This document shows, one piece after another, positions 1 through 17,691 of a DNA stretch of 43,570 bases. Source of the stretch: Bacteriovoracaceae bacterium (GTDB taxonomy: Bacteria > Bdellovibrionota > UBA1018); the NCBI GenBank assembly GCA_043759365.1, contig JAYVNB010000119.1:1-43570 (forward strand). Direction: 5' to 3'. Under the pieces are notes generated by a model. The model saw only the letters and a program-made list of their open reading frames with translations. It ran no database searches and was not told the DNA's origin. A program made the position numbers and the translations under genes. Position 1 is the first letter of the stretch. Each line of letters begins with the position of its first letter.

Positions 1-237
1 TGGGCCTATCTCTGGGTCGACAAGACGAAGAAAGAAGGAATCCTTTTCGAGATGATGTGGAGCAACGAGGGAGACTCACCGGTTCCGCGCTTGCAGAAGC
101 TCAAGGACATCTCCCTGACGAAAAACGAGATTCGTGCGGCGGGGGAGTTTGGATCCCTCGATCGGTATCGGATCGACCTGCACAAGAAGGAGATCGAATA
201 CGTGTACTCCGGGGACAACATCTATAAATTTTGGTGA
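1..237 (+). CDS. Hypothetical protein, 5'-truncated by the window edge
   Basis: Frame 1 is open from base 1 (WAYLWVDKTKKEGILFEMM...YKFW) to TGA at 235-237 and converges on the next gene's stop; no recognisable motif. Confidence 0.6.
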   Translation, partial: WAYLWVDKTKKEGILFEMMWSNEGDSPVPRLQKLKDISLTKNEIRAAGEFGSLDRYRIDLHKKEIEYVYSGDNIYKFW

Positions 238-242
238 GCCGC

Positions 243-1748
243 TCACGGTCGTCGATCGAGGTGAATCCGTAGCGCGACTTCCGAAGGAGAAGTGATGCTG
301 ACTCCTGCCACGCGCCGAGGCCCCGATAAGCCTTGGATCTCGATGGCGCGGATCCAGTCGCCTTGGGGCAACGGAACCCGATCGAGCTTCGCTTCCAACT
401 CGAGCCAATTCAAAAGCCTCACGAAGTCGGCCTTCGTCGGATAGGCGCCGATTCCCGTGAGATAAGAGTAACGGAATCTCCCCAGCCTCCAAGCCTGGCG
501 GGCGCGGTAGGAGAAATGCTCCTCATTCCCGGAATTTTCGATCGGATCTCCGGCTAAAAGAGGGTCGAGATTGACCGCTTTTCCATCCCTGAGTCTTCCG
601 ATCAGGATGTATTGACCCTGCCAGTTCGGGACTTGAGCATACATGTCAAAGGCCTGACGCCAGAGAACTCGATCCACCTCACGGGTGATCGCCCCGATTT
701 TTTCTCGAGTGGGAATGGGCACTCGGGTAATTGGACCGGCAACCCCCAGAAAGTTGCCTGCCCAAGAAACCAGCCCTGCGCATCCGATCAGGATGACGAT
801 CGCGCCTTTCGTCCGCAGCCAAGGAGTGCGCACCTTTCGAAGTTGGACCGAAGGCCCCTGCGGAAGCCAGTGGCAGATCATCAGGATCGCGAGGGACCAA
901 GCGATGAAGGTGGTGTGGATGGAAACCATGATCCCGATCGCGAGTGACAAGGCGCCCGCGCATCCGAGTGTCCGAGCGACTTTCGGTCTGAGCACGAGCA
1001 ATACCGGACAAAGGCATTCGATGGCGAGTGCGCCCAGTCCCAACGCGGCGAGGATCGAGTCAGGCCATGTCCTCAGATACTCCGACAAAGGTGTTGAATA
1101 GTGAGCATCGCTGATCGCCAGTGCAAGCGCGCTCCCGTTGAGCCATTCGTGCAAGTTCATTCCTTGGGTGCTGAGAACCTTGTTCCAACCCGCCGTCAGG
1201 AGAAACAGCACCCCCTGGAGGAGGAGGACGCGCGTTGGGATTGAAGCATCGATGAAACCGCTACCGAAGCCTCTCCATTCGAGTTTTCCATTTCGGAACC
1301 CCATCCGAAAGCAGTCCGCACAAGGAGTGAGCGCAAGCCAAAACAAGGTGGCGCCTAGGTAGTCGTATCCATAATGCATGATCATCGCGGGGTATCGGGC
1401 CGCCGCTGTGTAACCGATCGAAGCGATAATCCCGGACCAGACGGGTTTCAAGCCGAGGGAAAAAACCAACGCAGCTATCGAGGAAATGAGCAGGAACCAG
1501 GTCTTTCCGAGGTCGCCTGGAATCCACTGGAGTAGCGAAAAAAAATAGCTTCCCTCGGGTGAAATCAGTCCATGGGAGCCATACCAAAGGTCGAACTCCA
1601 TCAGCCGACAAGCCAGGTCGTAAGCGGTGGTCAAGCCGACCAGGACCCGCGCAAGGGCGAGCATGCGAACGTCTGCACTTAGCCGGGGTATCGGCCTAGG
1701 GGAGGGCCGGTTGGGTTGAACAGAAAGGGATTGATCGACCGAAAGCAA
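243..1748 (-). CDS. HTTM-domain membrane protein (VKGC/SdpB-like), paralog 1
   Basis: About 500 aa with multiple TM segments; DVRMLALARVLVG, LQGVLFLLTAGWNK, WLNGSAL and C-terminal QAFDMYA...GRLRDG match the family pattern. Start codon uncertain (TTG). Confidence 0.8.
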   Translation of the reverse strand: MLSVDQSLSVQPNRPSPRPIPRLSADVRMLALARVLVGLTTAYDLACRLMEFDLWYGSHGLISPEGSYFFSLLQWIPGDLGKTWFLLISSIAALVFSLGLKPVWSGIIASIGYTAAARYPAMIMHYGYDYLGATLFWLALTPCADCFRMGFRNGKLEWRGFGSGFIDASIPTRVLLLQGVLFLLTAGWNKVLSTQGMNLHEWLNGSALALAISDAHYSTPLSEYLRTWPDSILAALGLGALAIECLCPVLLVLRPKVARTLGCAGALSLAIGIMVSIHTTFIAWSLAILMICHWLPQGPSVQLRKVRTPWLRTKGAIVILIGCAGLVSWAGNFLGVAGPITRVPIPTREKIGAITREVDRVLWRQAFDMYAQVPNWQGQYILIGRLRDGKAVNLDPLLAGDPIENSGNEEHFSYRARQAWRLGRFRYSYLTGIGAYPTKADFVRLLNWLELEAKLDRVPLPQGDWIRAIEIQGLSGPRRVAGVSITSPSEVALRIHLDRRP

Positions 1749-1918
1749 GATTCGAGCTCCTTGTCTTGAAAGGAAAGGTGCGTAGGGGTCTATTGAAGTC
1801 TAAGGCCAAGGTGACTCAACCCCCCCATTGATTCAGGAAGCGCGAAGAGTCAGCCGGCAACGAGGGAGACCCGATGTTTTTTGGACGGTTGCCGCAACGC
1901 CTGGGATAGAATCGGGAA

Positions 1919-3373
1919 ATGCGTCTGCGACTAGTTGATCTCAAATCACTGGCGGCCTACCGGATTTTCACGGCGGGCTACCTGCTTTTTGACATCGGTC
2001 TGCGCTGGATCGATGCCCCCTTGGTTAACCATCCCAGTGTACTCGAGCCCGTCCGCCGTGAACTCACTTTCAGCCTTCTGCGCGCAACCGAAAATCTTCA
2101 GACTCTGCCGTTGGTTTGGGCCGCGATCGCGGCCTGTTACGTGCTTTTCCTGATCGGGTTCCGCACCCGGGTCTTCCATGCCCTGAGTCTGGCTGGATTT
2201 TTAAGCCTGCTGAACTACAACAACCACGTCCTATATGAAGGGGACGCGCTGGTTGCTTTCGGCCTCCTTTGGTCCCTCTTCACTCCCACGGGTTCGAAGT
2301 GGAGCATGGACTCCCTCCGGCAACCCGACTCCGCAAAACGGGTCAGGTCCTGGGGAGTGGCTGCTCTCAAGATCCAAGTGTGGGTCATGTATGCAGTGAG
2401 CGCCGCCTGGAAAATCACCAATCCCGATCATGATTGGACCTATGGTACTGCACTTTTTTACGGGTCGCGCTACGACTGCACGGCTTGGGGACTGGCTCCC
2501 TGGATCCAGTCCTTGCCATTTCCCCTGACCCGACTCCTGACCTGGTTCATCTTGGCCGTCTGGTGTGCTGTGCCTTTGATTCTGGTAGGTCGAGTTCGAA
2601 CCGCGGCTCAACGGCGATGGGGGGTCGGGAGTCTGGTCTTCGTCCATGCGCTTCTCTGCAGCACCCTCTACGTAGGAGCGTTTTTTTGGGCGATCCTTCC
2701 CTTGCTACTTTTGTTCTTGGAACCTTCCGATCTGGGGCTTCGAGAAACTGGGAGTGACTCGGGGACTCGAACTGAAGGGGGCTGGCGCTCGACCGCACTG
2801 ATCGCGCTCTTGGCTTACGTGAACTTCTTCACGCTGGCGCAAGTCTACGAGAGTTTGACCCGATCCTGGATTGGCGAAGTGGGTGCTCCCCTTTATTACC
2901 GACTCAAACCCGTCCGGCTCGTGAACTTGAACGCTGCCCTGTTTCCACCGCAATACTGGCGGATCCACGCATTTACGCCTCGGTTCGATACCACTTTCTT
3001 TTTTGAAGGGATTACTCGTGAAGGAAAGTCGATCGACCTGAGTCCACCCTTGAGCTCTTGGACCCGATGGTTCACCTTGACTTCCCCGGGGGGGATCGAC
3101 TGGGTACCCCAACACAACGGAAGGATCTATGATCGGATCGTTTACAACTACCTTTGGAACATGAAGAAGGGTGGAGATGCCAGGGATCGAGCGGCATTCG
3201 GAGAGTGGCTCCGCAACCTGTATCAGATGAAATTTCCAGGTCTCGTACTGGATCGGATCATCTGGCATGATTGGATGGAGGTCACTGCGGCGCCCGGCCT
3301 GCCTCAGCCCGCCGGACTGATCAAGGAGATCGCGCAAACCTGGGATTGGACTCCGAAGGCGGTGTCGAAGTGA
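1919..3373 (+). CDS. HTTM-domain membrane protein, paralog 2
   Basis: DLKSLAAYRIF, WSLFTPTGSKWSMD, QVWVMYAVSAAWK, WTYGTALFY, C-terminal QYWRIHA...GITREG. Confidence 0.85.
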   Translation: MRLRLVDLKSLAAYRIFTAGYLLFDIGLRWIDAPLVNHPSVLEPVRRELTFSLLRATENLQTLPLVWAAIAACYVLFLIGFRTRVFHALSLAGFLSLLNYNNHVLYEGDALVAFGLLWSLFTPTGSKWSMDSLRQPDSAKRVRSWGVAALKIQVWVMYAVSAAWKITNPDHDWTYGTALFYGSRYDCTAWGLAPWIQSLPFPLTRLLTWFILAVWCAVPLILVGRVRTAAQRRWGVGSLVFVHALLCSTLYVGAFFWAILPLLLLFLEPSDLGLRETGSDSGTRTEGGWRSTALIALLAYVNFFTLAQVYESLTRSWIGEVGAPLYYRLKPVRLVNLNAALFPPQYWRIHAFTPRFDTTFFFEGITREGKSIDLSPPLSSWTRWFTLTSPGGIDWVPQHNGRIYDRIVYNYLWNMKKGGDARDRAAFGEWLRNLYQMKFPGLVLDRIIWHDWMEVTAAPGLPQPAGLIKEIAQTWDWTPKAVSK

Positions 3374-4878
3374 AGCAAGGGTCCCACTCCGACCTGGGTC
3401 GATTCTACTTTTCGATCGACGACCGGAGCCTCGCGCTCTTTCGGATCGCGGCGTCGATGGTCCTGATCGAGGATTGGTTTCATCGGTGGATCGATCGCGC
3501 TGCATTTCTCGGGCCTGACTCCGTTCTTCCCGTCGCGTTGAACCCCTCCGCCTCGCTTTTTAACTGGGCTAGCACCCGCACCCAGGTCGATCTCCTGATG
3601 TTGGGTGGGCTGCTCCTTTACCTGGCTTTCGGACTGGGGTGGCGGACCCGGATCGTGCACTGGCTTGTTTTCGCTTTTCAGCTCTCCTTGAGTCATCGAA
3701 ACGACCTGACCAACAATGCAGGGGATTTCATCCTGTCCTGCATGTTGTTCTGGACCGCATTTCTCCCCTGCTCGAATCGTTTCAGCTGGGATGAGAGATC
3801 GGGGCGAGCGGAGGCGCCATCGGTGATCCACGCTTGGGCTGCTTTCGCGGTCTACGGTCAACTGGCTGTGATCTACTTCGCGTCGGCGCTCTCCAAGACG
3901 GGTCAAGCCTGGTCAGATGGAACGGCCCTCTACTATTTCTGGAACATCACTTTCTCGGGTGAGGTGGGGATATTCCTGTCTCGGGTACTTCCACGGTTCG
4001 TCATCGAGACACTCTCGTGCTTCGCGCTGGCGACCGAATTCGTTTGTCCCTTTCTGATCCTGGCGCCCTTCCCTCGCCTGCGCTTCAGGATTCTGGCCTT
4101 TGGGCTTCTGGTTGGAATGCATCTGGGAATCGACCTGACCTTTTTCACAGGCATTTTCCAATATGTCGCGATCGCTGCGCTACTCCCTTTGATCTCGTCC
4201 GAGGATTGGCTCTGGGTGTCCAGAAAGTTGCCAACTCTCGCTCTCCTGGGGGCGCGGGACCTCCGAAGCCCGCCCCAGACCCGATCGTCGCGTCGTACAG
4301 TGCCCTGGCTTGCGCGGTTGAGATGGGCATCACTGGCTCTCTTCATGGGTCTTTGCGGCTACCAGGCAGTCGCCGAAGCGGTGAACTACCGCTCGGGGGC
4401 CGAGACGATTCCTTCCTTGGCGGCTGGTGGCGCTCGTTTGCTTTCAGATCTCCAGCTGACCCAAATTTGGCGGATGTATGCTCCACAGCCCGCCGCATTG
4501 ACGCGTTGGTGGGTGGTTCAAGGGAGCTTTGCCGATGGGAGTCGCAGGGATTTGTTTTCAGGAGCACCGGTTGATCTCAATCGGCCCGTGGACTTGGGGG
4601 GGCGGCAGAGTCGATTCTGGACTCGCTACCTCTATGTGCTCCCTCATTCACCTGACCACGTCGCTCCCTTCCTCGATTATCTCGAGCGCGTTCATTCTGG
4701 GACTGGCCTGACTGGTCTTGAACTGATCTATGTTGAGCAAGTGACCACGCCTCCGGAGACCGGGGTGTCTAATCCGCCGAGAGTTTATTCGCTCATCCAG
4801 CGGGATTTGGTCACACGGACTGATCGCCAGTTGGCTTCGGATCGAGTCATGGATTGGAAGTGGGAGGCGATGAAATGA
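3370..4878 (+). CDS. HTTM-domain membrane protein, paralog 3
   Basis: GTG at 3370 overlaps the upstream TGA (GTGA); DRSLALFRI, WTAFLPCSNRFSWD, QLAVIYFASALSK, WSDGTALYY, QIWRMYAP, GSFADGSRRDL. Confidence 0.85.
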   Translation: MKQGSHSDLGRFYFSIDDRSLALFRIAASMVLIEDWFHRWIDRAAFLGPDSVLPVALNPSASLFNWASTRTQVDLLMLGGLLLYLAFGLGWRTRIVHWLVFAFQLSLSHRNDLTNNAGDFILSCMLFWTAFLPCSNRFSWDERSGRAEAPSVIHAWAAFAVYGQLAVIYFASALSKTGQAWSDGTALYYFWNITFSGEVGIFLSRVLPRFVIETLSCFALATEFVCPFLILAPFPRLRFRILAFGLLVGMHLGIDLTFFTGIFQYVAIAALLPLISSEDWLWVSRKLPTLALLGARDLRSPPQTRSSRRTVPWLARLRWASLALFMGLCGYQAVAEAVNYRSGAETIPSLAAGGARLLSDLQLTQIWRMYAPQPAALTRWWVVQGSFADGSRRDLFSGAPVDLNRPVDLGGRQSRFWTRYLYVLPHSPDHVAPFLDYLERVHSGTGLTGLELIYVEQVTTPPETGVSNPPRVYSLIQRDLVTRTDRQLASDRVMDWKWEAMK

Positions 4879-6389
4879 TTCGCAAGTGGATGCGTATCGA
4901 TTTGAGGTCCCTGGGTTTTTTCCGAATCCTCGTTTCGCTACTTCTGCTTCTCGACCTGTTGCGAAGGTGGGAAGTGAAGGAGTTGTTTTACGGTCCCGGT
5001 TCGGCGGGTGAGCTGGATTACTTCCGAGATTGGAGCTTTAGCCTTTTTCACGGGATCGTCTCGGACTGGCTCTTCGGCTACGCTTTGTTCGCCTGCTTCG
5101 TTTCCTATTTCTGCCTTTTGATCGGCTACAGGACCCGGGCCGCCACCGTGGTCTCCTGGGTCCTGTTCACCAGCTTGTTTCGTTATAATCACGCTTTGAT
5201 TCACGGCGGGCACATGCTCCTGTCGGCCTTCTTAATGTGGGCGTGCTTCCTTCCTTGGGGGGATCAGTTCAGTGTCGACGCCCGAAGGCCGCCGCGTGCG
5301 GCGAGTCCTTCGATGGGGAGTCCACCGCATGTGGCTATCCTCCTGATTCAGATGCAATATATCTTAGTCTACTTCAGCTCCTTTCTCGCCAAGACCCTCT
5401 ACCATCCACTCCTGCCTCCCGGAACGACCAACGACTGGATCGTCGGAACCGCCTGGTATTACGCCATGAACTACCGAACAGTGGCAGACGGCTTGGCGCC
5501 GTGGTTTGTGAGGACTCTTCCGACCTGGGCATTCTACGTGATGAATTACAGTGTCCTCGCGTTCGAGGGCTTCGGAGCGCTGCTCTTGCTCTCGACGAAC
5601 CCTCGACTTCGGAGGTCAGCACTCCTGATCGGAGTCGGATTCTCCATCGGCACGATGATGACCCTGTATGTCGGGGATATCGCCCGGATCATGTGCGCCG
5701 GAACTTTCCTTTTCGTGCGGACGGAGGATTGGGATTGGATTTTCGGGCGCTTGGGGCTCAATCCACGAAAAGGTGCCGCTCCCGTCGAGACCGCGAGTCA
5801 CCACCGGAACAACCAATGGAAAGACGCCTCCCAGTGGATTGCGCTGTTCCTGGGCTATTCGAATTTCTGGATGGTCTGCGACCAGTTCCGGGTGCAGCCT
5901 TTGCCGACTGTCTTTAGGCCTGAGGAGGCGATTCGACTTCAGCGGATCGTCGCGTTCGACCAAAATTGGGATTATTTCTGGAATGGTCCCCGCATCGATC
6001 ACTCTTTCGCGTTCTTCGGGATTCTCGACAATGGGACCGAGATCAGTTTGGAGGAGGCTTTTCGCGGAGGAAGCGCGTGGGACGGATTGCGTGCGCCCGC
6101 TCCAGCCACCCGCGCTCCGATCGATGGAGTCGTCACCTACTACGGCCTTCTCAGGTTTCGGTACCTGGATGCATTCTTCAACTTCGGTCAATCTCGCCCC
6201 GGCGAGACCTGGCCAGTGAATTTGGTTAAACTCTCGCGGTATTTGAAGGCCAAGTACGAGTCCCGGTTCGCAATCCACCTCACTTCGATCCGGGTCGAGC
6301 GGATCGATCGGTTCACGCCGCCGATCGACCATCGGATGGAGAGTTTGGGGCCAGGGACCGTCGGTGCCAGCTACTCCTGGAAGTACTGA
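4875..6389 (+). CDS. HTTM-domain membrane protein, paralog 4
   Basis: ATGA overlap at 4875-4878 with GGAGG RBS at 4863-4867; DLRSLGFFRI, WACFLPWGDQFSVD, QYILVYFSSFLAK, WIVGTAWYY, QNWDYF, GILDNG. Confidence 0.85.
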   Translation: MIRKWMRIDLRSLGFFRILVSLLLLLDLLRRWEVKELFYGPGSAGELDYFRDWSFSLFHGIVSDWLFGYALFACFVSYFCLLIGYRTRAATVVSWVLFTSLFRYNHALIHGGHMLLSAFLMWACFLPWGDQFSVDARRPPRAASPSMGSPPHVAILLIQMQYILVYFSSFLAKTLYHPLLPPGTTNDWIVGTAWYYAMNYRTVADGLAPWFVRTLPTWAFYVMNYSVLAFEGFGALLLLSTNPRLRRSALLIGVGFSIGTMMTLYVGDIARIMCAGTFLFVRTEDWDWIFGRLGLNPRKGAAPVETASHHRNNQWKDASQWIALFLGYSNFWMVCDQFRVQPLPTVFRPEEAIRLQRIVAFDQNWDYFWNGPRIDHSFAFFGILDNGTEISLEEAFRGGSAWDGLRAPAPATRAPIDGVVTYYGLLRFRYLDAFFNFGQSRPGETWPVNLVKLSRYLKAKYESRFAIHLTSIRVERIDRFTPPIDHRMESLGPGTVGASYSWKY

Positions 6390-6396
6390 TCTCGTT

Positions 6397-7860
6397 TCAA
6401 GGTTCTGAAATGAGGTTGTTCCGGTTGTCCCGATAGGTGTGATTGAGAATTTGAATCCGAGGTGATTCGACGATCTCGCCGCGAAAATCCAGGGGAGGGA
6501 TTTTTGTATCGATTTGAAAGATATCGACGGCCTCCAGCCTCGGATCATCCCTCATGAATTTCGAGGCCAATCCCTTCGCCAAGCGGTTCGAAGAGGACCC
6601 GGACAATCGGGGCGCGTAGTCGTTGAAGAGACTCGGATACCGCGTGGCCGCATCCCTGGGCTCGATGAGGGAGAGCATGGGTCCGCCTTTGAGGAGATCG
6701 ACGGGATGATCGGATGCGCCTTTGAAGCTGCCACGCACTCCGATGTACGGACGAGTCGTGGGGAGACTCCTGAACATGTCCCATCTTTGGGAAAAAAGGT
6801 CCTGCACGAAAGGGCAGCCAGCGATCGGACCTAGGATTCGTGGCCAGACATCGCCGAGGGGAGACTGGTTTTGCGTCGAATAGGTTCGGAGGACATTTTG
6901 ATTCAGAGCGCTCAACCCGAAGATCGCGCACACCGCGATCGACAAATTTCTCCAGACACGGCCCGTGGCAGTCGGGCAGGTGAGAAAGCCAGGCGCTGCA
7001 GGCAGGGGCAACGTGAGAAAAAGGCAGGTGATCATGGTCCAGCAAAACCGGTTCAGTTGGAGAAAAGGGGAGAGTGCCAGATGAAAAGCGATGAGGCAGC
7101 AGCCTCCCCAGGTGAGGAGGTTCCGCGCGAATCGTTGGCGAGCTTCCTGGGGTGAATGGATCCAGGCGGCGCCGAAAGCCAGGCAGAGTCCGCCTCCCCA
7201 CTCGACGGCGAGCGAGCCATAGGTCATTCCTCGAATCAGGGATGCCGGCAGCACTTCCGAGAGCTTCCTTCCGAGTTCGGTTCCATTTCGAGATTGGAGT
7301 GCGAGGTAAGTGGCACTCCCGTCTCGCCATGCGGAATTCGACAGCTTGGCGAGTGCGGCCCCGCAGTAAATGAAGGCGAGTTGCGCGAGGACCAAAGAGC
7401 CGGGAGCGGGCCGATAGACAGCGAGGCGAGCTTTTCCTCGCCAGCGGTCCCAAGACCAGGCCCGATTCAGTGGCAAGGGAAGCGTCAGTACGAGAAAAAG
7501 GGTTTCGACATGCGTGCTCGCGTTCGAGTGGAGCCACGCTCGGGCATTGAGCCCGATGTGGATGAGGATCATCAAGACTTGTGTCCCGCGGGTCCATGCG
7601 CCGACCGTGAAGCCGATCGTCGCTATCGCCATCATCCCAAGCATCCATTGCCAGGCGAAGCGGCTTGGGATCGCATCGTACCAGACGGGGGCGAGGCCGA
7701 CTCCTTCGAGCGCGGAGCCTGGGCCGATCAGGATCCCAAGGGATTCGAACTTGTCCCGAAGGTCGAGAAGCAAGACGAAGCCCATGCCGATCCGGAACGC
7801 AGCCAGACTTCGATCGGGGATTCGGGAGAGCGAGGTCGATGCCTGCATGGAGTCGGACAT
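6397..7860 (-). CDS. HTTM-domain membrane protein, paralog 5
   Basis: DRSLAAFRIGMG, LPLNRAWSWD, QLAFIYCGAALAK, WRDGSATY, QRWDMF. Start at 7884, 7860 or 7848. Confidence 0.85.
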   Translation of the reverse strand: MSDSMQASTSLSRIPDRSLAAFRIGMGFVLLLDLRDKFESLGILIGPGSALEGVGLAPVWYDAIPSRFAWQWMLGMMAIATIGFTVGAWTRGTQVLMILIHIGLNARAWLHSNASTHVETLFLVLTLPLPLNRAWSWDRWRGKARLAVYRPAPGSLVLAQLAFIYCGAALAKLSNSAWRDGSATYLALQSRNGTELGRKLSEVLPASLIRGMTYGSLAVEWGGGLCLAFGAAWIHSPQEARQRFARNLLTWGGCCLIAFHLALSPFLQLNRFCWTMITCLFLTLPLPAAPGFLTCPTATGRVWRNLSIAVCAIFGLSALNQNVLRTYSTQNQSPLGDVWPRILGPIAGCPFVQDLFSQRWDMFRSLPTTRPYIGVRGSFKGASDHPVDLLKGGPMLSLIEPRDAATRYPSLFNDYAPRLSGSSSNRLAKGLASKFMRDDPRLEAVDIFQIDTKIPPLDFRGEIVESPRIQILNHTYRDNRNNLISEP

Positions 7861-7932
7861 GGGTCTTCGGACAGTATGAACCAAACTGACTCCCGTCGGA
7901 AGGGATGGAGTTCCTGATCGCCTCGGCTTAGA

Positions 7933-9132
7933 ATGAGCTTCGTGTCGTCACCCTCGAAAGCCCGCTTCGCATGGATCGCCCTTCTGGTTTCAGTGTCCTG
8001 GGGAACCGGTCTTCCTCCGGCGACTGCAGGAGAGAAGGTCCAAGGCAAGAGCTTGGGCATCAAGCGTTCCAAAGCGATCGAGGCCTTGAGTCGCGCCCAA
8101 TGGCCGTTGGACGAGGCCTCGTTTTTCAGAGCCGTCCGTGAAAGACGGGTGGAGATCGTCCAGCAATACCTGGATGCGGGATTGAGTCCGGAGTCCGTCG
8201 ATCAGGGCAAGCCCGTCGTCTTTCTCGCAATCGCTCGACGCAGCAATGCTCTCTTGAAGGTCATCCTGGCTCGCAAGCCCCGTTTGGACGTGCTGGACGA
8301 TCTTGGGCAGACCCCTCTCATCTTGGCGACCAAGCTGGGGGAGATCGAAATGGTGAAAGCGCTCCTCAAAGCCGGCGTTAAAATGGATGCGGCTGATCCG
8401 GGTGGCCGAACTCCCATTTTTTTTACTGCGGCCGCAGGCCAGATTCATCTGCTCAAGTGGTTTCTGTCTCAAAGGGCGCATTGGGCGGGTTTTGCGCAGT
8501 GGGAGGGTCGTTCGAGGTCCATCCTGGAAGTAGCGGCATCAGAAGGGCAGCCCTGGTCGCTTGAAGTCCTTCTCAAGGCGGGTCTTGATCCGAATCTGAA
8601 ACCCTCCGCCGACGCAGAGGGTACGACCCCCTTGATGGCAGCGGTCTCAGCCGGAGTACCCGAAGCGGTTCAAGTGCTGCTTCGGGCGGGCGCTCATCCC
8701 TCAGCCTTGGACAAAAAAGGCAGGAACGCGCTTTTCTACCTGACTTCCCGGGGTAAGAGCGACTCACCTGCCAAAATCATCCCTCTCCTGACGAAAGCCG
8801 GGCTCTCGCTGGAGAGCCGGGATGCGACGGGCGATACGCCGTTGACCGCATCCATACGGGAGCTGCAGCCGATCGAGGTGCAGGAGGAGTTCCTGAGGGC
8901 AGGAGCGTCGACTGAGTATTCCGAGGAGGGACGGAATGGGCCACTTCAGCTCGCAGTCCGGATAGAACAGATCGATATCGTCGAGGCGCTTTTAAGGGCC
9001 GGTGCCAACCCCGTTGCGAAGGATGGCGCGCACGATTCGGCTCTCGCCATCGGATTGTTTCAAAAGCCGTTCCTATTCACTCTCAACTTCGCGCTTCTCA
9101 GGTCATGGATGAAAGGCGCTTACAGGCATTGA
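7933..9132 (+). CDS. Exported ankyrin-repeat protein
   Basis: Signal-peptide-like N-terminus followed by repeated ankyrin motifs (GQTPLILA, GRTPIFFTA, GTTPLMAA, GDTPLTAS, LLRAGA). Confidence 0.9.
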   Translation: MSFVSSPSKARFAWIALLVSVSWGTGLPPATAGEKVQGKSLGIKRSKAIEALSRAQWPLDEASFFRAVRERRVEIVQQYLDAGLSPESVDQGKPVVFLAIARRSNALLKVILARKPRLDVLDDLGQTPLILATKLGEIEMVKALLKAGVKMDAADPGGRTPIFFTAAAGQIHLLKWFLSQRAHWAGFAQWEGRSRSILEVAASEGQPWSLEVLLKAGLDPNLKPSADAEGTTPLMAAVSAGVPEAVQVLLRAGAHPSALDKKGRNALFYLTSRGKSDSPAKIIPLLTKAGLSLESRDATGDTPLTASIRELQPIEVQEEFLRAGASTEYSEEGRNGPLQLAVRIEQIDIVEALLRAGANPVAKDGAHDSALAIGLFQKPFLFTLNFALLRSWMKGAYRH

Positions 9133-9467
9133 AGCTCAGGTGATGGAACCCCTGCCGGGCAGCACCAGCACTCCTTGCCGATTCCGGCATCGGCCAATCG
9201 CGTGCCTCCACGGGCTTTCGCCAAGACACCGCAGCTGAAATCCGCTGCGCGCCCGCAATCCCCCTCCACCCAGCCCACTTCAAATCCCTGACGACAGCGG
9301 CAGGGCACCGTCCGGAGTGGGTGAACCGCTTGCTCCAAGACCGGGTCACGCCGAGGGCGGTGGAGAGGTGAGGTGCTGTAGATGAAGATTCCCGCGGCGA
9401 TCAGGACTCCTATGATGAGAGGAAGCAAAGGCTTCCAAGTCGATTCCGAAGGGCTTTTTTGGGTCAT
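9120..9467 (-). CDS. Small membrane-anchored Cys-rich protein
   Basis: One TM helix (LLPLIIGVLIAAGIFIY) then a domain with 8 Cys; same strand as and just downstream of the pilin-like gene. Alternative start at 9482. Confidence 0.6.
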   Translation of the reverse strand: MTQKSPSESTWKPLLPLIIGVLIAAGIFIYSTSPLHRPRRDPVLEQAVHPLRTVPCRCRQGFEVGWVEGDCGRAADFSCGVLAKARGGTRLADAGIGKECWCCPAGVPSPELQCL

Positions 9468-9548
9468 GGGATCTTGCTGCAAGCGTGTTTCTTCCAGGGG
9501 GAGTTAAGGGGTCGAGGGGGGGGCAAGTCCGATCGATGGAGCTCTCGT

Positions 9549-11363
9549 TCAATTGGCCGGGAAGCGAGTGCCGCCGCCGCAGGAGTTCGCGCCGCTGTAC
9601 GAATCATAGCAGCATTGCGTCCGAGTTCCATCGGATCCCATGACGACCGGCCCACAGAGGGGGTAGGTCGTCCGAACCACGAGGTTCTGACAATCCACTC
9701 CGGGCCTACAGGTGAGGTTGATCGCCATGCCGCGTGACCAAACGCCGTTGGCTCTCTCAATAATCGAAGACGGGCTCTGTTGAGTTTGAGTCTGAGTCTG
9801 GGTCTGGGTTTGAGCTTGGGTCTGGGTTTGGGTTTGGGCCTGAGTTTGGGTCTGAGTTTGGGTCTGGGTCTGGGTCTGGGTCTGAGTTTGGGTCTGAGTC
9901 TGAGTCTGAGTTTGGGTCTGAGTTTGTGTCTGGGTCTGAGTTTGAGTTTGGGTTTGGGTTTGGGTTTGAGCTTGGGTCTGAGTTTGGGTTTGGGTCTGAT
10001 TTCCCGTGCAGCTGGGGTCCTGCGGATTTTGGGCACAGATACAAGTTTGAAATGCAACAGCATTTGCGGTGGTATCACCGCAAGCATAGGTCATATCGGC
10101 TTCGGGATGACCTATGCAGTAGTTGGTGACCGTGCATGTTTGAGCTTGGGTCTGAGCTTGGGTTTGAGCCTGAGTCTGAGTTTGGGTTTGAGCTTGGGTT
10201 TGAGCTTGGGTTTGAGCCTGGGTCTGAGTTTGGGTCTGGGTCTGGGTCTGGGTCTGGGTCTGGGTTTGGGTCTGGGTTTGGGTCTGGGTCTGATTCGTTA
10301 CTCCGCCTTGGCAAGCTAAGACATAGTTCGTTCCCCCGGGAATCTGTTGACAAGCACACCGTGAAATTGAAGGAGACGCGGCTTGATCTCCGCAGGCACC
10401 GTTATTGCCGCCGGGGGACGGGCGAGCGTTGTCAGCCGCATTTGGATAGGGGAAGCAGGGCGTGCCTGTCCGATTGTCAGGATAGCAACCCGCGCGAGGG
10501 GGCGTAGGGACCAAGAACTCGCCCTGATATTTGGACAGGTCAATCGTACCGACTTGATTTGATGAGTTCGGAATCAGGTTGCCGCTCGCGTCCCGATTCA
10601 AGAAGAGGAGAGTACTTCCACTCGGCAGGCTTCCCAGTTTGTCACTGATTTCATAGGTCAGCCGGATGCGAAAGTTCGGCTGGAAGCAAGCTAGGCGCTT
10701 ACTACTACTACTGGGTGGGTTGCCGAAGTCGCAACTCATGCCGACCAATTCGATCACAGGTCGAATGGGGCAATTGAGCGAGGTAGTCGTGTCTTGCCCG
10801 TTTGGACTGTAGAGGCAGGGCGCTCCATTGAGCGAAATTCCCCAGTGGCCGCTGCCGGTCCCACCAAAGGGTGCGGCAGGGGCATTGTCGCGAGAGTCAA
10901 AAGCGACCTTGCCCGGATCTTCGGCTCCGCCCGTCAGAAACGCGCGCGCATGGAGCCTCAGCGGCTGACTACTGATGCTCCATGCGTTCTTTCTCCAGCA
11001 GTCGCCCTGAGGAGGAATATACGCGGGCCCCCCCCCTGTGATTGAAGTCCCCAATCCCCCTAAGGAAGCGCATTTGAGGAGTGAAGTCGCATTGCCCGTA
11101 AAGGCGGCTGGGCTGTTGTTTTCGGTGTCTTCAACCGTGTACTTCCACACCGCGGGATCCGAAAGAATTCGGTTCTGCGTCGAGTTACGGAATTCCTGGA
11201 GGGCAACTTTGATTTTCTGGGCTTGGCTGTTAGCCGTGAAGTTGCCCATCATCTGGGTGGTCAGGTAGAGCACACCGGACGTCAATCCCAAGCCGACCAT
11301 CACGCCGAGCAAGCTTTGCCCGCGACTCCGTGGATTGTTTTTTTGAATCCGCAATCGATCCAA
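9549..11363 (-). CDS. Type IV pilin/pseudopilin-like surface protein with Cys-rich modules and Gln-Thr repeats
   Basis: Basic leader plus G|QSLLGVMVGLGLTSGVLYL hydrophobic helix resembling a class III prepilin signal; many Cys; two (QT/QA)n tracts. Confidence 0.75.
   Translation of the reverse strand: MDRLRIQKNNPRSRGQSLLGVMVGLGLTSGVLYLTTQMMGNFTANSQAQKIKVALQEFRNSTQNRILSDPAVWKYTVEDTENNSPAAFTGNATSLLKCASLGGLGTSITGGGPAYIPPQGDCWRKNAWSISSQPLRLHARAFLTGGAEDPGKVAFDSRDNAPAAPFGGTGSGHWGISLNGAPCLYSPNGQDTTTSLNCPIRPVIELVGMSCDFGNPPSSSSKRLACFQPNFRIRLTYEISDKLGSLPSGSTLLFLNRDASGNLIPNSSNQVGTIDLSKYQGEFLVPTPPRAGCYPDNRTGTPCFPYPNAADNARPSPGGNNGACGDQAASPSISRCACQQIPGGTNYVLACQGGVTNQTQTQTQTQTQTQTQTQTQTQTQTQAQTQAQTQAQTQTQTQAQTQAQTQAQTCTVTNYCIGHPEADMTYACGDTTANAVAFQTCICAQNPQDPSCTGNQTQTQTQTQAQTQTQTQTQTQTQTQTQTQTQTQTQTQTQTQTQTQTQTQTQTQAQTQTQTQAQTQTQTQTQTQQSPSSIIERANGVWSRGMAINLTCRPGVDCQNLVVRTTYPLCGPVVMGSDGTRTQCCYDSYSGANSCGGGTRFPAN
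9780..9998 (-). repeat. Hexanucleotide tandem repeat (ACYCAR/GCYCAR)n encoding the distal QT tract
   Basis: About 36 units of 6 bp with synonymous codon variation. Confidence 0.95.
10137..10292 (-). repeat. Hexanucleotide tandem repeat encoding the proximal QT/QA tract
   Basis: About 26 units of 6 bp; pure QT first, then QAQT. Confidence 0.95.
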
Positions 11364-11519
11364 GATGCGTCCCGCCTTCTCGACTGGCCCTGCTAATCGG
11401 TCTTTCTAGTTTAGCAGCCGGGCATAGTGCCGTAAAAACTTAATTTCCCGATTCGGATTGGCGACTTCGGGTCTGGCGGGACCCAGTCGCGGGTGACACA
11501 CGAAACGAAGCCGGGGATA

Positions 11520-11536
11520 CGGGCATCCCTGTTGCA
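11520..11536 (+). promoter_or_regulatory. Putative sigma-54 (-24/-12) promoter
   Basis: CGGGCATCCCTGTTGCA: GG at 11522-11523, exactly 10 nt, then GC at 11534-11535 inside TTGCA; 40 nt upstream of the ATG at 11576. Confidence 0.55.
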
Positions 11537-11575
11537 TCGTTGAGAAGTACGCGACCGGAACGGGAGGTTCCTCAT

Positions 11576-11977
11576 ATGATACCGCTACGAATCCACAACA
11601 TCCTCGACTACGTGATTGCCGCGGTCTTAATCTTCACGCCTTACCTACTCGGTTTCTCGAGCCTCAATGCTGCCCGAAACGTTTTTGGGATTTTGGGCGT
11701 TTCTTTGGCCGTCTACAGTCTCATCACGGACTACCGCTACTCGATCGCCAAGATTGTGCCGCTCGGAGTGCACATGGCGATGGATGTAGTCACTGGATTC
11801 GGGTTGATGCTCGCTCCTTCGATCTTCGGGTACAGTTCCCTGATCACGGGAACCCAATTTGGTGCTCACTTCGTCCTCGGCTTGGGCGCAGTCGTTTTGG
11901 TGGCCCTGACCTATCCGAAATCCGGCCGAGTCATTCGAGCCAAGAGCGAAAAACCCGAACTCCGTCGAGTCGCCTGA
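11576..11977 (+). CDS. SPW-repeat-like small integral membrane protein
   Basis: Four TM helices as two repeats (HNILDY...TPYLLGF / HMAMDV...APSIFGY); GGAGG RBS at 11563-11567. Confidence 0.8.
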   Translation: MIPLRIHNILDYVIAAVLIFTPYLLGFSSLNAARNVFGILGVSLAVYSLITDYRYSIAKIVPLGVHMAMDVVTGFGLMLAPSIFGYSSLITGTQFGAHFVLGLGAVVLVALTYPKSGRVIRAKSEKPELRRVA

Positions 11978-11993
11978 AGCGGGCTTACGACCG

Positions 11994-14312: not shown

Positions 14313-14401
14313 TTTATCTCCTTGACTGCACTCGGGTCGGTCAATAAAACCTGACATACCTTGTTGAGTTGAGCAAGTGTACGTACAAAAAGGGGTAATT
14401 C

Positions 14402-15925
14402 ATGTTCTTGGCTGTCTTGGCGCTTATTTCTGCGACCACTTCACACGCGATGGATCTCGATTGGTCGGGACAGTTTCGCGCGGAAGCCCACTGGGTGAAG
14501 AACTACAATTTGGACAACGGGCTCATTCCCGGCACTGACCCTCGCAACACCTCGGGCGGCTATTACATCCCCGGTGGCGGATCCGACTCCGCACACTTCC
14601 AGTCGTTGTTCATGCGCTTGCGTCCCAAGCTCATCGTAAACGACAACGTGTACATCAAATCAGAATTCTGGCTCGGCAACCCGATCTTCGGTTTCTACGG
14701 CGATTCCGCGCCATTCAATCGCGACGAGCGACAATACTACTCCACGCAGTCGCGCGGTTCGAGCATCACTGCCCAGCGTTTCTGGGCTGAGTTCCTCACC
14801 GATGTCGGAACTGTTCAAGTTGGACGCGCGCCGCTCGACTGGGGTTTGGGGATCGTTTGGAGCGCGGGCGACGGCCTTTTCGACCGCTATCAATCCACCG
14901 GAGACGTGGTTCGCCTGATCTCCAAGTTCGGTTCGTTCTCATTCATCCCAAGCGTCGTGAAGTACTCGCTCGGCAATAACATCGGCGGCGCGTACAACCA
15001 AGTCGCGGGCGGTTCCGCTCAAGGCGGCGGCGGCGTTTCCGACTACTCCCTCGAGTTTAAATACGAGAACCCTGACGAGGATTTCGAGGGCGGGGTGAAC
15101 TTCATCAAGCGGATTGCCGGAGCGGCGCAGTTTGCAAGCGATCCGAACTCGGGCTTCTTGGGCGTCGGCAACAACGCCGGCACCAACGCCGTCCAAACAC
15201 CCTCGGGCGTGAATTACAATACCTGGGACCTTTATGGCAAAAAGAAGTTCGGCAAGGTCACCTTGGCCGCCGAACTCCCGATCACTTCGGGGGATATCGC
15301 TGGTCTCGAATACAAGACCTTCGCGGCTGCCCTCGAAGGCAAGGTCGATTGGACCGACTCCTGGGAGACCAATGTCCGCGCCGGCCACGCGCCAGGACAG
15401 CCGAACATCTCGGGTGCTTCCACGGACAAGTACCGGGCGTTCTATTTCAATCCGAACTACAAGCTCGGCTTGATCATGTTCAACTACCAACTGCGGAACT
15501 TCGCCGGACCGAACTCTCAAAACAATCCAGGGACTGCCGCAAGTTCCCTGAGCTCCCCCTACGACAACCCGATCGTCAACGCGAACTACCTCAACGTCGG
15601 TGGCGCTTACAAAACCGACAAGTGGCGGTTCAAGGCTAATTACATCGTGGCCGGTGCTCGCGAAGCGGCAGCGGGGACCCAGGGATTCTTCAACACTTGG
15701 GACCACCGGTATGTCGGTAAAGTGGCGGCTGCCCCAGACCAAAAGACCAGCCTCGGTTGGGAAATGGATTACGGCCTCGAGTTCCATTGGGACGAAGGCT
15801 TCGTGCTCGGTGCGGACGCGGGCTGGTTCTTTCCGGGCGACTTCTACAAGTTCTCCAACACGGCCACCGAGAACAACACCAACTCGGTATTCGCAACGGT
15901 GTTCCGTGCAGGCGTCAACTTCTGA
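14402..15925 (+). CDS. Outer-membrane beta-barrel protein (porin-like)
   Basis: Signal peptide (SHA|MD), amphipathic strands rich in G/N/Y/F, C-terminal Phe (FRAGVNF). Confidence 0.8.
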   Translation: MFLAVLALISATTSHAMDLDWSGQFRAEAHWVKNYNLDNGLIPGTDPRNTSGGYYIPGGGSDSAHFQSLFMRLRPKLIVNDNVYIKSEFWLGNPIFGFYGDSAPFNRDERQYYSTQSRGSSITAQRFWAEFLTDVGTVQVGRAPLDWGLGIVWSAGDGLFDRYQSTGDVVRLISKFGSFSFIPSVVKYSLGNNIGGAYNQVAGGSAQGGGGVSDYSLEFKYENPDEDFEGGVNFIKRIAGAAQFASDPNSGFLGVGNNAGTNAVQTPSGVNYNTWDLYGKKKFGKVTLAAELPITSGDIAGLEYKTFAAALEGKVDWTDSWETNVRAGHAPGQPNISGASTDKYRAFYFNPNYKLGLIMFNYQLRNFAGPNSQNNPGTAASSLSSPYDNPIVNANYLNVGGAYKTDKWRFKANYIVAGAREAAAGTQGFFNTWDHRYVGKVAAAPDQKTSLGWEMDYGLEFHWDEGFVLGADAGWFFPGDFYKFSNTATENNTNSVFATVFRAGVNF

Positions 15926-17643: not shown

Positions 17644-17691
17644 ATTGAGCATCTTGGCCTGCAGATTAGGTGAAAACCAGGGACAACACAA

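Follow-up and report, generated by a model that had tools for sequence, protein, structure and literature searches.

The window analyzed here, a stretch of 43,570 nucleotides from a sediment-dwelling relative of the predatory Bacteriovoracaceae, contains five neighboring, intact genes (H1 to H5) for divergent membrane proteins of 484–504 amino acids, spanning positions 243–7884. A first-pass annotation regarded them as HTTM proteins that all retain the putative catalytic lysine of vitamin K-dependent carboxylases. The locus raises the questions of whether the five proteins share that active site, which of them still possess it, and whether they work separately or together.

Organization of the locus

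Open reading frame calls bore out five genes of about 500 amino acids in the strand order -, +, +, +, - (Table 1). The translational coupling proposed for the middle three genes agrees with 4-bp stop/start overlaps, GTGA at 3370–3373 and ATGA at 4875–4878, with GGGAGG located 8 nt before the ATGA of H4. H4 and H5 are convergent, and 7 bp separate their stops. The end initially given for the array, 7860, is an alternative ATG start of H5; the longer H5 begins at TTG 7884. The spacer between H1 and H2 is presumably a promoter region, judging from the layout only. A sigma-70 consensus scan of positions 1–9300 found no site, and in a promoter and terminator consensus scan none exceeded shuffled controls.

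Table 1. Coordinates of the genes and the intergenic spacer in the H1–H5 array
Feature	Position	Strand	Description
H1	243-1748	-	ORF of 501 aa
Spacer H1/H2	1749-1918		170 bp between divergently transcribed genes
H2	1919-3373	+	484 aa; gene 1 of the conserved trio
H3	3370-4878	+	502 aa; GTG start overlaps the H2 stop (GTGA)
H4	4875-6389	+	504 aa; ATG overlaps the H3 stop (ATGA)
H5	6397-7884	-	495 aa from TTG at 7884; 487 aa if ATG at 7860

The array is not a recent acquisition, as the GC and GC3 contents of all five genes match those of host genes. No biosynthetic genes flank it, and the nearest desaturase-like gene (16588–17796) lies about 9 kb away. A crude hydropathy scan, too coarse to fix topology, gave 4–7 hydrophobic segments per copy.

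Paralogy and family membership

Pairwise identity among the five copies is 19–32%, and 19–22% in comparisons with H1. The five-way alignment has 22 invariant columns, among which the previously noted common, ordered motifs were found: the N-terminal D...R, the proline of WxxxxP, Q178...K190, W202xxG205xA207, and Q365/P374 opening the C-terminal domain (H1 numbering). The degeneracy of WxxxxP...SxD in H1 and H5 was also evident in this alignment. BLASTP comparisons among the paralogs, scaled to a database size of 1e6, gave E-values of 1e-24 (H3–H4), 5e-20 (H2–H4), 1.6e-15 (H3–H5), 3e-12 (H2–H3), 3e-5 (H1–H4 and H4–H5) and 1e-3 (H1–H3); H1–H2 (0.72) and H2–H5 (3.5) were not significant, and H1–H5 gave no match. 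The five genes are true paralogs, with similarity beyond chance. A sixth copy in the same genome, H6 (G000:C195:34465-35916), is closest to H5 (35.5% identical) and stands alone at another locus. In the tree, the copies of the window cluster at the base, every one on a long branch (end branches of 3.41 for H1, 2.35 for H2 and 1.67 for H4 versus a median of 0.81), and for this reason no order of duplication was drawn.

A profile built exclusively from 80 outside family members and scored at Z = 1e6 matched H3 with 243.8 bits (profile positions 10–481 of 496), H4 with 170.3 (8–398), H2 with 128.6 (14–399), H5 with 83.5 (5–418) and H1 with 59.8 bits (E 1.1e-14; 12–284 plus a weak second stretch). 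The Pfam HTTM model PF05090 (gathering cut-off 27.7 bits) was exceeded by H3 (40.7 bits) and H4 (37.6 bits), and by H2 with 38.7 bits in a six-frame genome search, while hmmscan of the H2 protein listed nothing; H5 scored 14.7 bits, below the cut-off, and H1 gave no match. The HTTM assignment made at first pass was thus upheld by Pfam for H2, H3 and H4, and solely by the family profile for H5 and H1.

Members of this family, about 500 amino acids long, consist of an HTTM core, a helix, and a C-terminal domain of about 150 amino acids with the motif QxWxMFxPxP, which is without a Pfam or NCBIfam model. The family profile recovered 20,409 representatives at E<=1e-3, of which 6,064 reach E<=1e-30, and nearly all of the best 150 were matched across both domains. 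A profile of the C-terminal domain alone was significant for H3 only (54 bits); in H1, H2, H4 and H5 only the opening QxW...P motif of this domain could be aligned. This lack of recognition in four copies was counted against the explanation preferred below. Against PDB sequences, the same profile gave only insignificant teneurin-like and muskelin matches. In the literature from 2015 on HTTM proteins, the subfamily was absent among the matches listed, a DUF5819 preprint aside.

Mapping of the active site onto GGCX

Among PDB sequences, the family profile matched GGCX alone (8 of 8 distinct sequences, best E 1.6e-12), and HMMER aligned profile positions 18–341 with GGCX residues 60–380. The K, W, E, R, H and F of the profile corresponded to GGCX K218, W223, D263, R276, H287 and F299, with D263 and F299, as cited in an excerpt of PMC12647623, serving to check the residue numbering. 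Roles of the mapped residues are given in excerpts of PMC12647623 and PMC13486548; according to the latter, GGCX D263E keeps 25% activity, other D263 variants lose activity, and viral epoxidases have Glu at this position. Conservation among 149 external family representatives was high for W, R and F (148 each), K and E (145 each) and H (131), and a family-specific aspartate, D127, was kept in 147. The conserved lysine singled out in the first-pass annotation fell on K218, and a tryptophan five residues on fell on W223; both are present in all five copies. The placement of the lysine in a pocket rests on this sequence-profile alignment, a point counted against the explanation preferred below. 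The D263 column holds Glu in H1, H3, H4 and H5, and Trp in H2.

The Glu-binding N159 and H160 of GGCX were not matched in any of the five copies, which have G/A/E/Y and G/S in these columns; family-wide, the columns hold G in 109/149 and 126/149 representatives, and the site reads Gly-Gly or Ala-Gly followed by D127. In the whole genome, nothing matched the VKGC lumenal domain (PF22777) at E<=10. The C-terminal domain profile likewise matched no GGCX chain at E<=10, the GGCX alignment ending at residue 380, and hhalign of this domain with 11 true bacterial VKGC-lumenal regions from the same phylum gave a probability of 0.07. A protein-atlas score of 0.76 to a VKGC-lumenal cluster is regarded as a lead only. 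The five proteins appear to be GGCX-like in the quinol-activating site, yet not carboxylase orthologs, because the N159/H160 site and the lumenal domain are unmatched. Identity as a GGCX/VKGC ortholog was rejected for lack of this Asn-His glutamate site and the lumenal domain.

State of each copy

Compared with the 149 representatives, H3 is the only canonical copy, keeping every near-invariant family residue: D119, Q164, Y169, K176 (GGCX K218), W181 (W223), E223 (D263), R240 (R276), F263 (F299) and W280. The other copies are described by profile positions. In H2, the Glu aligned with D263 is replaced by Trp, R20 by Lys and W289 by Gly. H4 keeps K, W, E and R, and has D127 changed to H, H260 to S and F272 to I. 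H1, the most divergent paralog, keeps Q...K...W..G.A, E and R and carries D127 to Y, Y179 to L, H260 to A and F272 to I. H5 keeps K, W, E, H and F, with T for D127 and L in the R249 column.

The proposal that all five copies keep the catalytic lysine therefore stands for the residue itself but not for the site around it. Keeping the lysine is not the same as keeping the active site, since all copies but H3 lack one or more further near-invariant residues and an H2 ortholog has Arg in place of the lysine. In this superfamily, lysine retention is a weak guide to whether the site is intact.

Orthologs and conservation of H2–H3–H4

Orthologs of the middle three genes were found in a genome of the same family and another genus (G420). 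One contig (C566) encodes an H2 ortholog (38%) followed on the same strand by an H3 ortholog (35%), with an ATGA overlap after GGAGG, and a second contig (C94) carries an H4 ortholog that is 44% identical. Scores between orthologs were 206–422 bits, versus 103 bits or less between paralogs. The G420 H2 ortholog shares the W and G at the derived positions of H2, so that Glu to Trp and W289 to Gly occur in 2/2 proteins of the H2 type, and it has Arg in the lysine position. H4 orthologs numbered three (39–45% identity), two of them lying beyond G420 and full-length, and all have the three derived states, which in the H4 type read D127 to H/N, H260 to S/C and F272 to I in 4/4. Additional H3 orthologs were found at 82% and 41% identity. 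H2-type genes were seen only beside an H3 type.

Because the trio was found in only 2 of the 116 genomes of the order, the case for its conservation consists of a single independent comparison and four orthologous proteins seen in isolation. Between G420 and the host, PyrG is 83% and PBP1A 65% identical, versus 35–44% for the trio orthologs; their fast evolution could reflect weak constraint. An H3-only search for related loci in genome contigs and metagenome contigs found none, and an alignment search with the H4 ortholog recovered only the known contig among genome contigs and none among metagenome contigs. For H1, a word-index search of a protein database of 5.8 billion clusters returned H1 itself only, and an all-candidate family-profile search found no H1-like copy in G420. 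The sole dedicated look for an H5 ortholog, a profile search of G420, found none. Four runs of one sediment study cover the stretch, with a single variant (1933 A>G), too few for pN/pS; no RNA run covering it was listed.

For each of H2, H3 and H4, an ortholog from another genus outranks all paralogs in similarity, in line with the original reading of the copies as old paralogs that are not decaying; by these comparisons, the trio core is old and maintained. It is extremely improbable that the array is a relic of tandem duplication whose divergent copies drift under relaxed selection, for the long end branches, the loss of near-invariant residues in 4/5 copies, the lack of an H1 homologue by word search and the low identity of trio orthologs beside PyrG are set against five intact frames despite 19–32% identity, full-length H2, H3 and H4 orthologs in another genus that share gene order, an overlap and derived residues, two more full-length H4 orthologs, and core motifs of both domains that persist in all five copies.

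Quinone and redox context

Searches of this 91%-complete genome gave 0 matches for MenA and for MqnA/D and found no UbiA-type quinone prenyltransferase; its two UbiA-family genes encode a haem O synthase and a DPPR-synthase-like enzyme. MenA was above cut-off in 6/12 genomes of the same family versus 0/21 genomes for UbiA_proteo, which points to menaquinone as the quinone of the lineage. The host encodes a VKOR homologue (69.8 bits), not adjacent to the array, and three DCC1-like genes. DCC1-like thiol-disulfide oxidoreductase domains are fused into 6/36 family members in one set and 3/81 in another, and into none of the five copies. Together, the DCC1-like fusions and the presence of VKOR suggest a link to redox chemistry.

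Twenty family loci had no conserved partner of known function, and no substrate candidate tied to this locus was found. Four loci from two other families within the phylum have family members next to co-oriented genes for large proteins; collagen repeats were recognized by Pfam in two of these large proteins, and the remaining two are related to them by BLAST. Other genomes hold 1–3 dispersed full-length family copies.

Proposed function and alternatives

The best explanation, which is put forward tentatively and as a whole, is that the five copies are anciently diverged members of a large uncharacterized bacterial inner-membrane family, that the translationally coupled operon H2-H3-H4 is the functional unit, and that H3 is its catalytic member, with H2 and H4 specialized. 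By analogy with GGCX, Lys176 of H3 would act as the base that deprotonates a quinol of the membrane, most likely menaquinol, with Trp181 stacking on the lysine and Glu223 beside it. The quinol would next react with O2 to form a strong base or oxidant, and this species would modify a substrate on the outer side of the membrane; the substrate would not be a Glu residue bound in the manner of GGCX. H2 is probably non-catalytic, having lost the acidic partner of the lysine, and its sister-genus ortholog has lost the lysine too. H4 would have stably altered substrate-side residues. H2 and H4 may be specialized paralogs made together with H3 for the same pathway or assembly, and H1 and H5 further, faster-evolving offshoots. 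Set against this explanation are the failure to find a quinone prenyltransferase in this genome, the finding of the trio in only 2 of 116 genomes, the fast evolution of its genes, and the lack of a substrate candidate tied to the locus. Membership in the family, the homology of the core with GGCX, the residue mapping, trio conservation and the losses at individual sites are shown by the results above; we infer the quinol and O2 chemistry, the topology, the co-operation of the paralogs and the nature of the substrate.

Alternatively, as in the distinct-substrates version of the first-pass annotation, the five proteins might be independent active enzymes, each with its own secreted protein or envelope lipid as substrate, the changes at D127, H260, F272 and E232 reflecting specificity. 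The retention of Q, K, W, G and A in all five copies is consistent with this, and the H4-type substitutions, stable in 4/4 proteins, would suit a new specificity, D127 lying beside the position of the substrate-binding N159/H160 of GGCX. The dispersed full-length copies in other genomes indicate that copies can work alone, and H6, the closest relative of H5, does stand alone. However, H2-type proteins are without the acidic residue paired with the lysine, and GGCX variants at D263 other than D263E lose activity (excerpt of PMC13486548). The Arg in the lysine position of the G420 H2 ortholog, the 4-bp overlaps kept in two genera, which suggest co-production, and the occurrence of H2-type genes only next to the H3 type also argue against five separate enzymes, and this alternative is judged somewhat unlikely.

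The proteins could also be independent of quinol and serve as membrane maturation, export or scaffold factors in which the Lys, Trp and Glu function in binding or structure. The best NCBIfam match is export_SdpB (TIGR04033; H3 57.3, H4 36.9 and H5 23.4 bits, none for H1 and H2), with 60/81 family members matching at E<=0.1, and the lipase maturation factor model PF06762 (LMF1) gave weak matches to H1 (18 bits), H3 (19.4 bits) and 7/81 members. The failure to find MenA in the genome and the four loci with large neighbors of the collagen-repeat type, which fit a client-protein relationship, point in the same direction. Nevertheless, in the checks against SdpB and LMF1 called for at first pass, all copies failed the cut-offs (178.4 bits for TIGR04033 and 27 bits for PF06762), and SdpA (TIGR04034) had no match at E<=1 in the genome in a search that passed its Bacillus subtilis control. 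Identity as SdpB was rejected on the scores far under the cut-off and the lack of SdpA, and identity as LMF1 on the sub-threshold scores of H1 and H3. Moreover, the near-invariant residues of the family are those of the GGCX quinol-deprotonation site, and the DCC1-like fusions and VKOR point to redox chemistry, which makes this second alternative decidedly unlikely. SdpB (an NCBIfam export protein) and LMF1 (a maturation factor) are relatives that are not simple enzymes, and this was held against the best explanation. To our knowledge, the mode of action of SdpB and LMF1 is not settled.

A more specific form of the best explanation, given only a slim chance, is a heteromer of H2, H3 and H4 in which H3 activates menaquinol with O2, while H2, having lost the Lys-acid pair, and H4, having lost substrate-side residues, present the substrate or regulate the reaction. 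A complex prediction for H2 and H3 scored 0.00 and was weighed neither for nor against binding. If the heteromer exists, it would be a pseudoenzyme-assisted quinol oxygenase modifying envelope or prey-derived molecules in a predatory lineage, and would give the vitamin K-dependent enzyme fold its first multi-subunit form.

There are tens of thousands of bacterial HTTM proteins, and a reaction or substrate is known for almost none of them. The trio offers a natural experiment, since its paralogs differ at residues that in GGCX serve quinol deprotonation and substrate handling; the pattern singles out H3 for assay, K176, E223 and D119 for mutation, and the other copies for testing as partners. 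The locus also marks a distinct C-terminal domain that is common in bacteria and lies outside the Pfam and NCBIfam models.

Comparison with known systems

Human GGCX has a homologous HTTM core in which K218, W223, R276 and F299 are identical to their counterparts and D263 corresponds to Glu; the counterpart of H287 is His in 131/149 representatives. GGCX differs in its length, 758 versus about 500 amino acids, and in that no Gla-type substrate is known here. SdpB of Bacillus subtilis resembles the array proteins as an HTTM-type polytopic protein acting on a secreted peptide, but its profile comprises 276 positions and is without a C-terminal domain of the array type.

MloH, described in excerpts of PMC12647623 and bioRxiv 10.64898/2026.08.19.745780 as a vitamin K-dependent carboxylase ortholog in malonomycin biosynthesis in Streptomyces, is similarly an HTTM enzyme of bacteria that has an extracytoplasmic domain fused to it and a non-Glu substrate. 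Compared by description, MloH sits in a natural-product gene cluster, whereas the array is without flanking biosynthetic genes; the fused region of MloH is said to match DUF5819 structurally, whereas here 1/81 family members touches DUF5819 (E 0.034). The HTTM-DCC1 proteins, which according to an excerpt of bioRxiv 10.64898/2026.08.19.745780 form a predicted complex with a DUF5819 partner, likewise complete a bacterial HTTM core with an extracytoplasmic domain in place of the GGCX lumenal domain, and DCC1-like domains occur as inserts in the present family too. In the array, however, the additional domain is part of the same polypeptide and HMM searches do not identify it as DUF5819, and no copy carries DCC1; DUF5819 was not found in the genome, and in the phylum it was matched in 4/201 genomes over the first 44 profile positions only.

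The giant-virus proteins VKE and VKED, as described in excerpts of PMC13486548, keep K218, have Glu at D263 and lack the GGCX 374–418 region, and on these grounds are read by their authors as quinol epoxidases and not carboxylases. The viral proteins are core-only and fused or adjacent to sterol desaturase and VKOR, whereas the array proteins carry a C-terminal domain of a distinct kind and have no VKOR gene next to them. By analogy, the same epoxidase logic may apply to H3.

Organization and paralogy of the array

Five long open frames, the divergent HTTM paralog genes H1 to H5, occupy positions 243–7884 with negligible gaps between them. The stop of H2 and the start of H3 overlap as GTGA (3370–3373) and those of H3 and H4 as ATGA (4875–4878), with GGGAGG located 8 nt upstream of the latter overlap; the divergent H1 and H2 are separated by a 170-bp spacer, and the stops of the convergent H4 and H5 by 7 bp. 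Forms of 502, 501 and 504 aa in a public protein collection have the same lengths as the genes called here. The GC content (0.57–0.59) and GC3 (0.66–0.72) of the five genes match those of PyrG, KdsA and PBP1A in the same window, and thus give no sign of recent import. A 15,095-base contig from one sequencing run, whose positions 5212–14985 correspond to 1–9774 of the window, extends about 5.2 kb further past the 3' end of H1, and the array may be longer than the five copies seen, continuing beyond window position 1.

Coordinates of the genes and loci discussed (window positions unless a genome, contig or locus is named)
Feature	Location	Strand	Description
H1	243–1748	-	501-aa open frame
H2	1919–3373	+	484-aa open frame
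H3	3370–4878	+	502-aa open frame
H4	4875–6389	+	504-aa open frame
H5	6397–7884	-	495 aa; 487 aa if from ATG at 7860
Ankyrin-repeat protein	7933–9132	+	399 aa; signal-peptide-like N-terminus
604-aa protein	9549–11363	-	No Pfam match; N-terminal hydrophobic helix, many Cys
Desaturase-like gene	16588–17796	-	Fatty-acid or sphingolipid delta-4 desaturase-like
H6, sixth full-length copy	G000:C195:34465–35916 (L030 5028–6455)		Same genome as the window (G000), other contig
Convergent HTTM-only pair	G154:C1:2863636–2865429		Example
Convergent HTTM-only pair	G271:C1:2813783–2815582		Example
Large protein beside family gene	L019 2135–4861		No Pfam match
Large protein beside family gene	L020 6499–9027		Pfam collagen triple-helix repeats
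Large protein beside family gene	L023 6501–6955		151-aa fragment at contig end
Large protein beside family gene	L024 2591–4948		Pfam collagen triple-helix repeats
Hint/PT-HINT-domain ORF	L036 3–1310 (G420:C94)	+	Convergent on H4 orthologue, in H5's place

In a five-way alignment, with 19–22% identity to H1, 22 columns were invariant, and every motif listed in the first-pass annotation was among them. BLASTP linked H2, H3 and H4 strongly in all pairs (E 3e-12 to 1e-24) and tied H5 to the set via H3 (E 1.6e-15) and H1 via H4 (E 3e-5) and H3 (E 1e-3); the H1–H2 and H2–H5 pairs were without significance alone, and H1–H5 gave no match. Circularity was avoided by building a family profile from 80 outside sequences only, scored at Z = 1e6, which returned 243.8 bits for H3, 170.3 for H4, 128.6 for H2, 83.5 for H5 and 59.8 for H1 (E 1.1e-14). 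The alignment and these scores identify H1–H5 as true paralogs. The C-terminal domain was matched by an outside C-domain profile in H3 only, of the five copies.

Family architecture and distribution

In members of this unnamed bacterial family, an HTTM core is followed by another helix and then by a C-terminal domain of ~150 aa that begins with QxWxMFxPxP. When 1.84 billion cluster representatives were searched exhaustively with the profile, 20,409 proteins matched at E≤1e-3, of which 6,064 reached E≤1e-30. The best 150 family matches (468–946 aa, median 522) were nearly all aligned from profile position ~10 to ~488, so that the family defined by both domains is very large. The Pfam HTTM cut-off was passed by H3 (40.7 bits), H4 (37.6) and H2 (38.7, six-frame search); H5 scored under it (14.7 bits) and H1 was unmatched, these two being placed with the others by the family profile. 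Matches to the SdpB and LMF1 models were weak, with a best score of 57.3 bits against a cut-off of 178.4 and 18–19.4 bits against 27, respectively.

Among the 81 members scanned, the C-terminal domain had no model in Pfam or NCBIfam: Pfam matches were HTTM in 63, DCC1-like in three and DUF5819 in one (E 0.034), and the weak SdpB match, in 60, was the sole NCBIfam match. A DCC1-like thiol-disulfide oxidoreductase separates the HTTM core from the C-terminal domain in 6 of 36 members, and AMMECR1 was fused C-terminally in 2 of 14 scanned, one of them also carrying Memo (P0095, P0101 and P0097 include examples of both fusions). In the protein atlas, the neighbours of the H3 C-terminal domain were unnamed bacterial clusters (0.91), and those of an H4 orthologue were 'HTTM domain-containing protein' clusters of ~490–520 aa from Bacteroidota, Myxococcota and Verrucomicrobiota.

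Of 401 sampled genomes of the phylum, with three candidates scored per genome, at least 177 had a family match at E≤1e-20. Ten genomes searched in full had one to three full-length copies, mostly on separate contigs; two had seven matches each, with adjacent copies in G305:C10 and G197:C399. In one genus of the phylum, many complete genomes have a convergent pair of ~310-aa HTTM-only genes. Tandem HTTM genes are therefore not uncommon, but a second array of five two-domain copies was not seen in the genomes examined. In the window's genome, the sixth copy, H6, is the closest relative of H5 (35.5% identity over 459 aa) and lies apart from the array. Genes for a CHASE2 histidine kinase and a sigma-54 response regulator are located upstream of H6, which also overlaps by 4 bp a 264-aa ORF without Pfam match. 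Shorter HTTM-only genes are also present, on contigs C97, C56 and C276.

Residue changes and age of the H2-H3-H4 trio

All near-invariant family residues, numbered here by profile position, are kept in H3. In H2 the family Glu is replaced by Trp, R20 by Lys and W289 by Gly; in H4, D127 is replaced by His, H260 by Ser and F272 by Ile; in H1, D127 is replaced by Tyr, Y179 by Leu, H260 by Ala and F272 by Ile; and in both H5 and H6, D127 is replaced by Thr and the R249 column lacks Arg. The putative catalytic Lys was, as first noticed, retained in all five copies, but to read this as evidence that all five active sites are intact would be misleading, since near-invariant residues are changed in H1, H2, H4 and H5. 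It is unlikely that the array encodes five independent enzymes, and a non-enzymatic role in maturation or export appears more doubtful still.

The old paralog expansion initially proposed was borne out by synteny in G420, a genome (74% complete) from a different genus of the same family. On contig C566 of this genome, an H2 orthologue (38% identity over 472 aa) precedes an H3 orthologue (35%) in the same orientation; the start of the latter and the stop of the former overlap as ATGA, with GGAGG before the overlap. An H4 orthologue (44%) is located on a separate 2.9-kb contig, C94. The orthologues scored 206–422 bits, far above all paralog scores (≤103 bits), and the H2-H3-H4 triplication is therefore older than the split of the two genera. 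H3 orthologues were identified at 82% and 41% identity and full-length H4 orthologues at 45% and 39%, and a word search yielded none for H1. Among 116 genomes of the order searched for H4 orthologues, only the window's genome and G420 were positive, and no H2-type protein reached E≤1e-25 in 400 further genomes sampled from the phylum, a set that did not include G420. The trio evolves fast, its orthologues being 35–44% identical between G420 and the window's genome versus 83% for PyrG and 65% for PBP1A.

The derived residues of the H2 and H4 types are inherited, as judged from these alignments: Trp for Glu and Gly for W289 occur in both H2-type proteins, that of G420 also having Arg for Lys, and all four H4-type proteins have His or Asn, Ser or Cys, and Ile at the three altered sites. 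All four H3-type proteins keep the canonical residues, apart from a D127 replaced by Glu in one of them. H2 and H4 are thus shown by sequence comparison to be old, maintained, co-translated paralogs with distinct heritable losses at the residues that correspond to the GGCX quinol-deprotonation site. That the copies are in decay is very improbable: the intact frames of H2–H4, and the order, overlap and derived states conserved in G420, rule it out for the trio, and for H1 and H5 the evidence against it is limited to intact frames and core motifs.

Genomic neighbourhood and quinone background

The window has the gene content of an ordinary chromosome (KdsB, PyrG, KdsA, KdsC, PBP1A, M16 peptidases and two-component systems), and the sequencing runs containing it are sediment metagenomes from a single study. 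An ankyrin-repeat gene is transcribed away from H5, and the two start codons are 48 bp apart (72 bp for an H5 start at 7860). It is absent beside the trio in G420, where the flanks are unlike those of the window: a gene for a PEP-utilising enzyme lies upstream, and the H4 orthologue faces a convergent gene for a Hint/PT-HINT domain of the type found in polymorphic toxins. Neither an H1-like nor an H5-like gene was seen in G420. The 604-aa protein beyond the ankyrin-repeat gene contains two long (TQ)n runs, encoded by 6-nt repeats at 9780–9998 and 10138–10286, at which assemblies break.

Across 20 family loci, no recurrent partner of known function was found. The exception is a set of BLAST-related large proteins located directly beside a family gene, on the same strand, at four loci (L019, L020, L023 and L024) in genomes that belong to two other families within the phylum. 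They are possible client proteins, a lead for the family and not for this locus. About 9 kb from the array, at 15953–18738, are genes for an FMN-binding protein, a desaturase-like protein and a zinc alcohol dehydrogenase. In giant viruses, GGCX-like epoxidases are paired with desaturases, according to excerpts of PMC13486548; a comparable pairing of the desaturase-like gene with the array would be hypothetical.

The window's genome (91% complete) contains a VKOR homologue (C202:10904–11296, 69.8 bits), three DCC1-like genes and a haem O synthase; MenA, MqnA/D and a quinone-type UbiA prenyltransferase were not found in it, reflecting either an assembly gap or reliance on outside quinone. Elsewhere in the same family, MenA exceeded its cut-off in 6 of 12 genomes and proteobacterial UbiA in none of 21, which makes menaquinone the plausible cofactor.

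Relation to GGCX and proposed role

When searched against all PDB sequences, the family profile returned human vitamin K-dependent carboxylase (GGCX) alone, in all eight distinct sequences (best E 1.6e-12), with profile positions 18–341 aligned to GGCX 60–380. The GGCX numbering was verified against the residues named in excerpts of PMC12647623. The family Lys aligns with K218, which is described there as the general base, and the Trp five residues further on with W223, which stacks on that Lys. The family Glu aligns with D263, where excerpts of PMC13486548 report 25% residual activity for D263E and the presence of Glu at the same site in giant-virus epoxidases, and the family Arg, His and Phe align with R276, H287 and F299, the last being the CO2-stacking residue (PMC12647623, excerpts). 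Among 149 outside representatives, these residues were conserved in 145 (Lys), 148 (Trp), 145 (Glu), 148 (Arg), 131 (His) and 148 (Phe). The columns of N159 and H160, the holders of the substrate glutamate in GGCX, are Gly-Gly in the family and are followed by a family-specific Asp (147 of 149). Of the GGCX site, the family thus conserves the half that activates quinol but not the half that carboxylates glutamate; judged by these residues it would act as a GGCX-type quinol activator, and it is not a carboxylase orthologue.

The VKGC lumenal domain was considered as the identity of the C-terminal domain and rejected on sequence tests: PF22777 had no match at E≤10 in the genome, the C-domain profile returned no GGCX chain at E≤10, and hhalign of this domain against 11 true HTTM plus VKGC-lumenal proteins of the same phylum, which are present in 15 of 401 genomes, gave a probability of 0.07. 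The VKGC-lumenal-domain cluster is the nearest named atlas cluster to the H3 domain (0.76), a lead only.

The residue comparison shows H3 to be the canonical member, in which the family invariants coincide with the GGCX quinol-deprotonation site. Our tentative overall reading is that H3 may be a quinol-based catalyst, H2 and H4 its partners in one pathway or assembly, and H1 and H5 further specialised offshoots. The H3 Lys, together with Trp and Glu, would deprotonate menaquinol; oxygenation would then generate a strong base or oxidant, which would modify a substrate outside the cytoplasm that is not a GGCX-style Glu. H2 probably lacks catalytic activity and H4 would have altered substrate-side residues, both acting with H3. 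Compared with GGCX, the family has the quinol-site residues, but lacks the Glu-binding Asn-His and a lumenal domain that matches by sequence.
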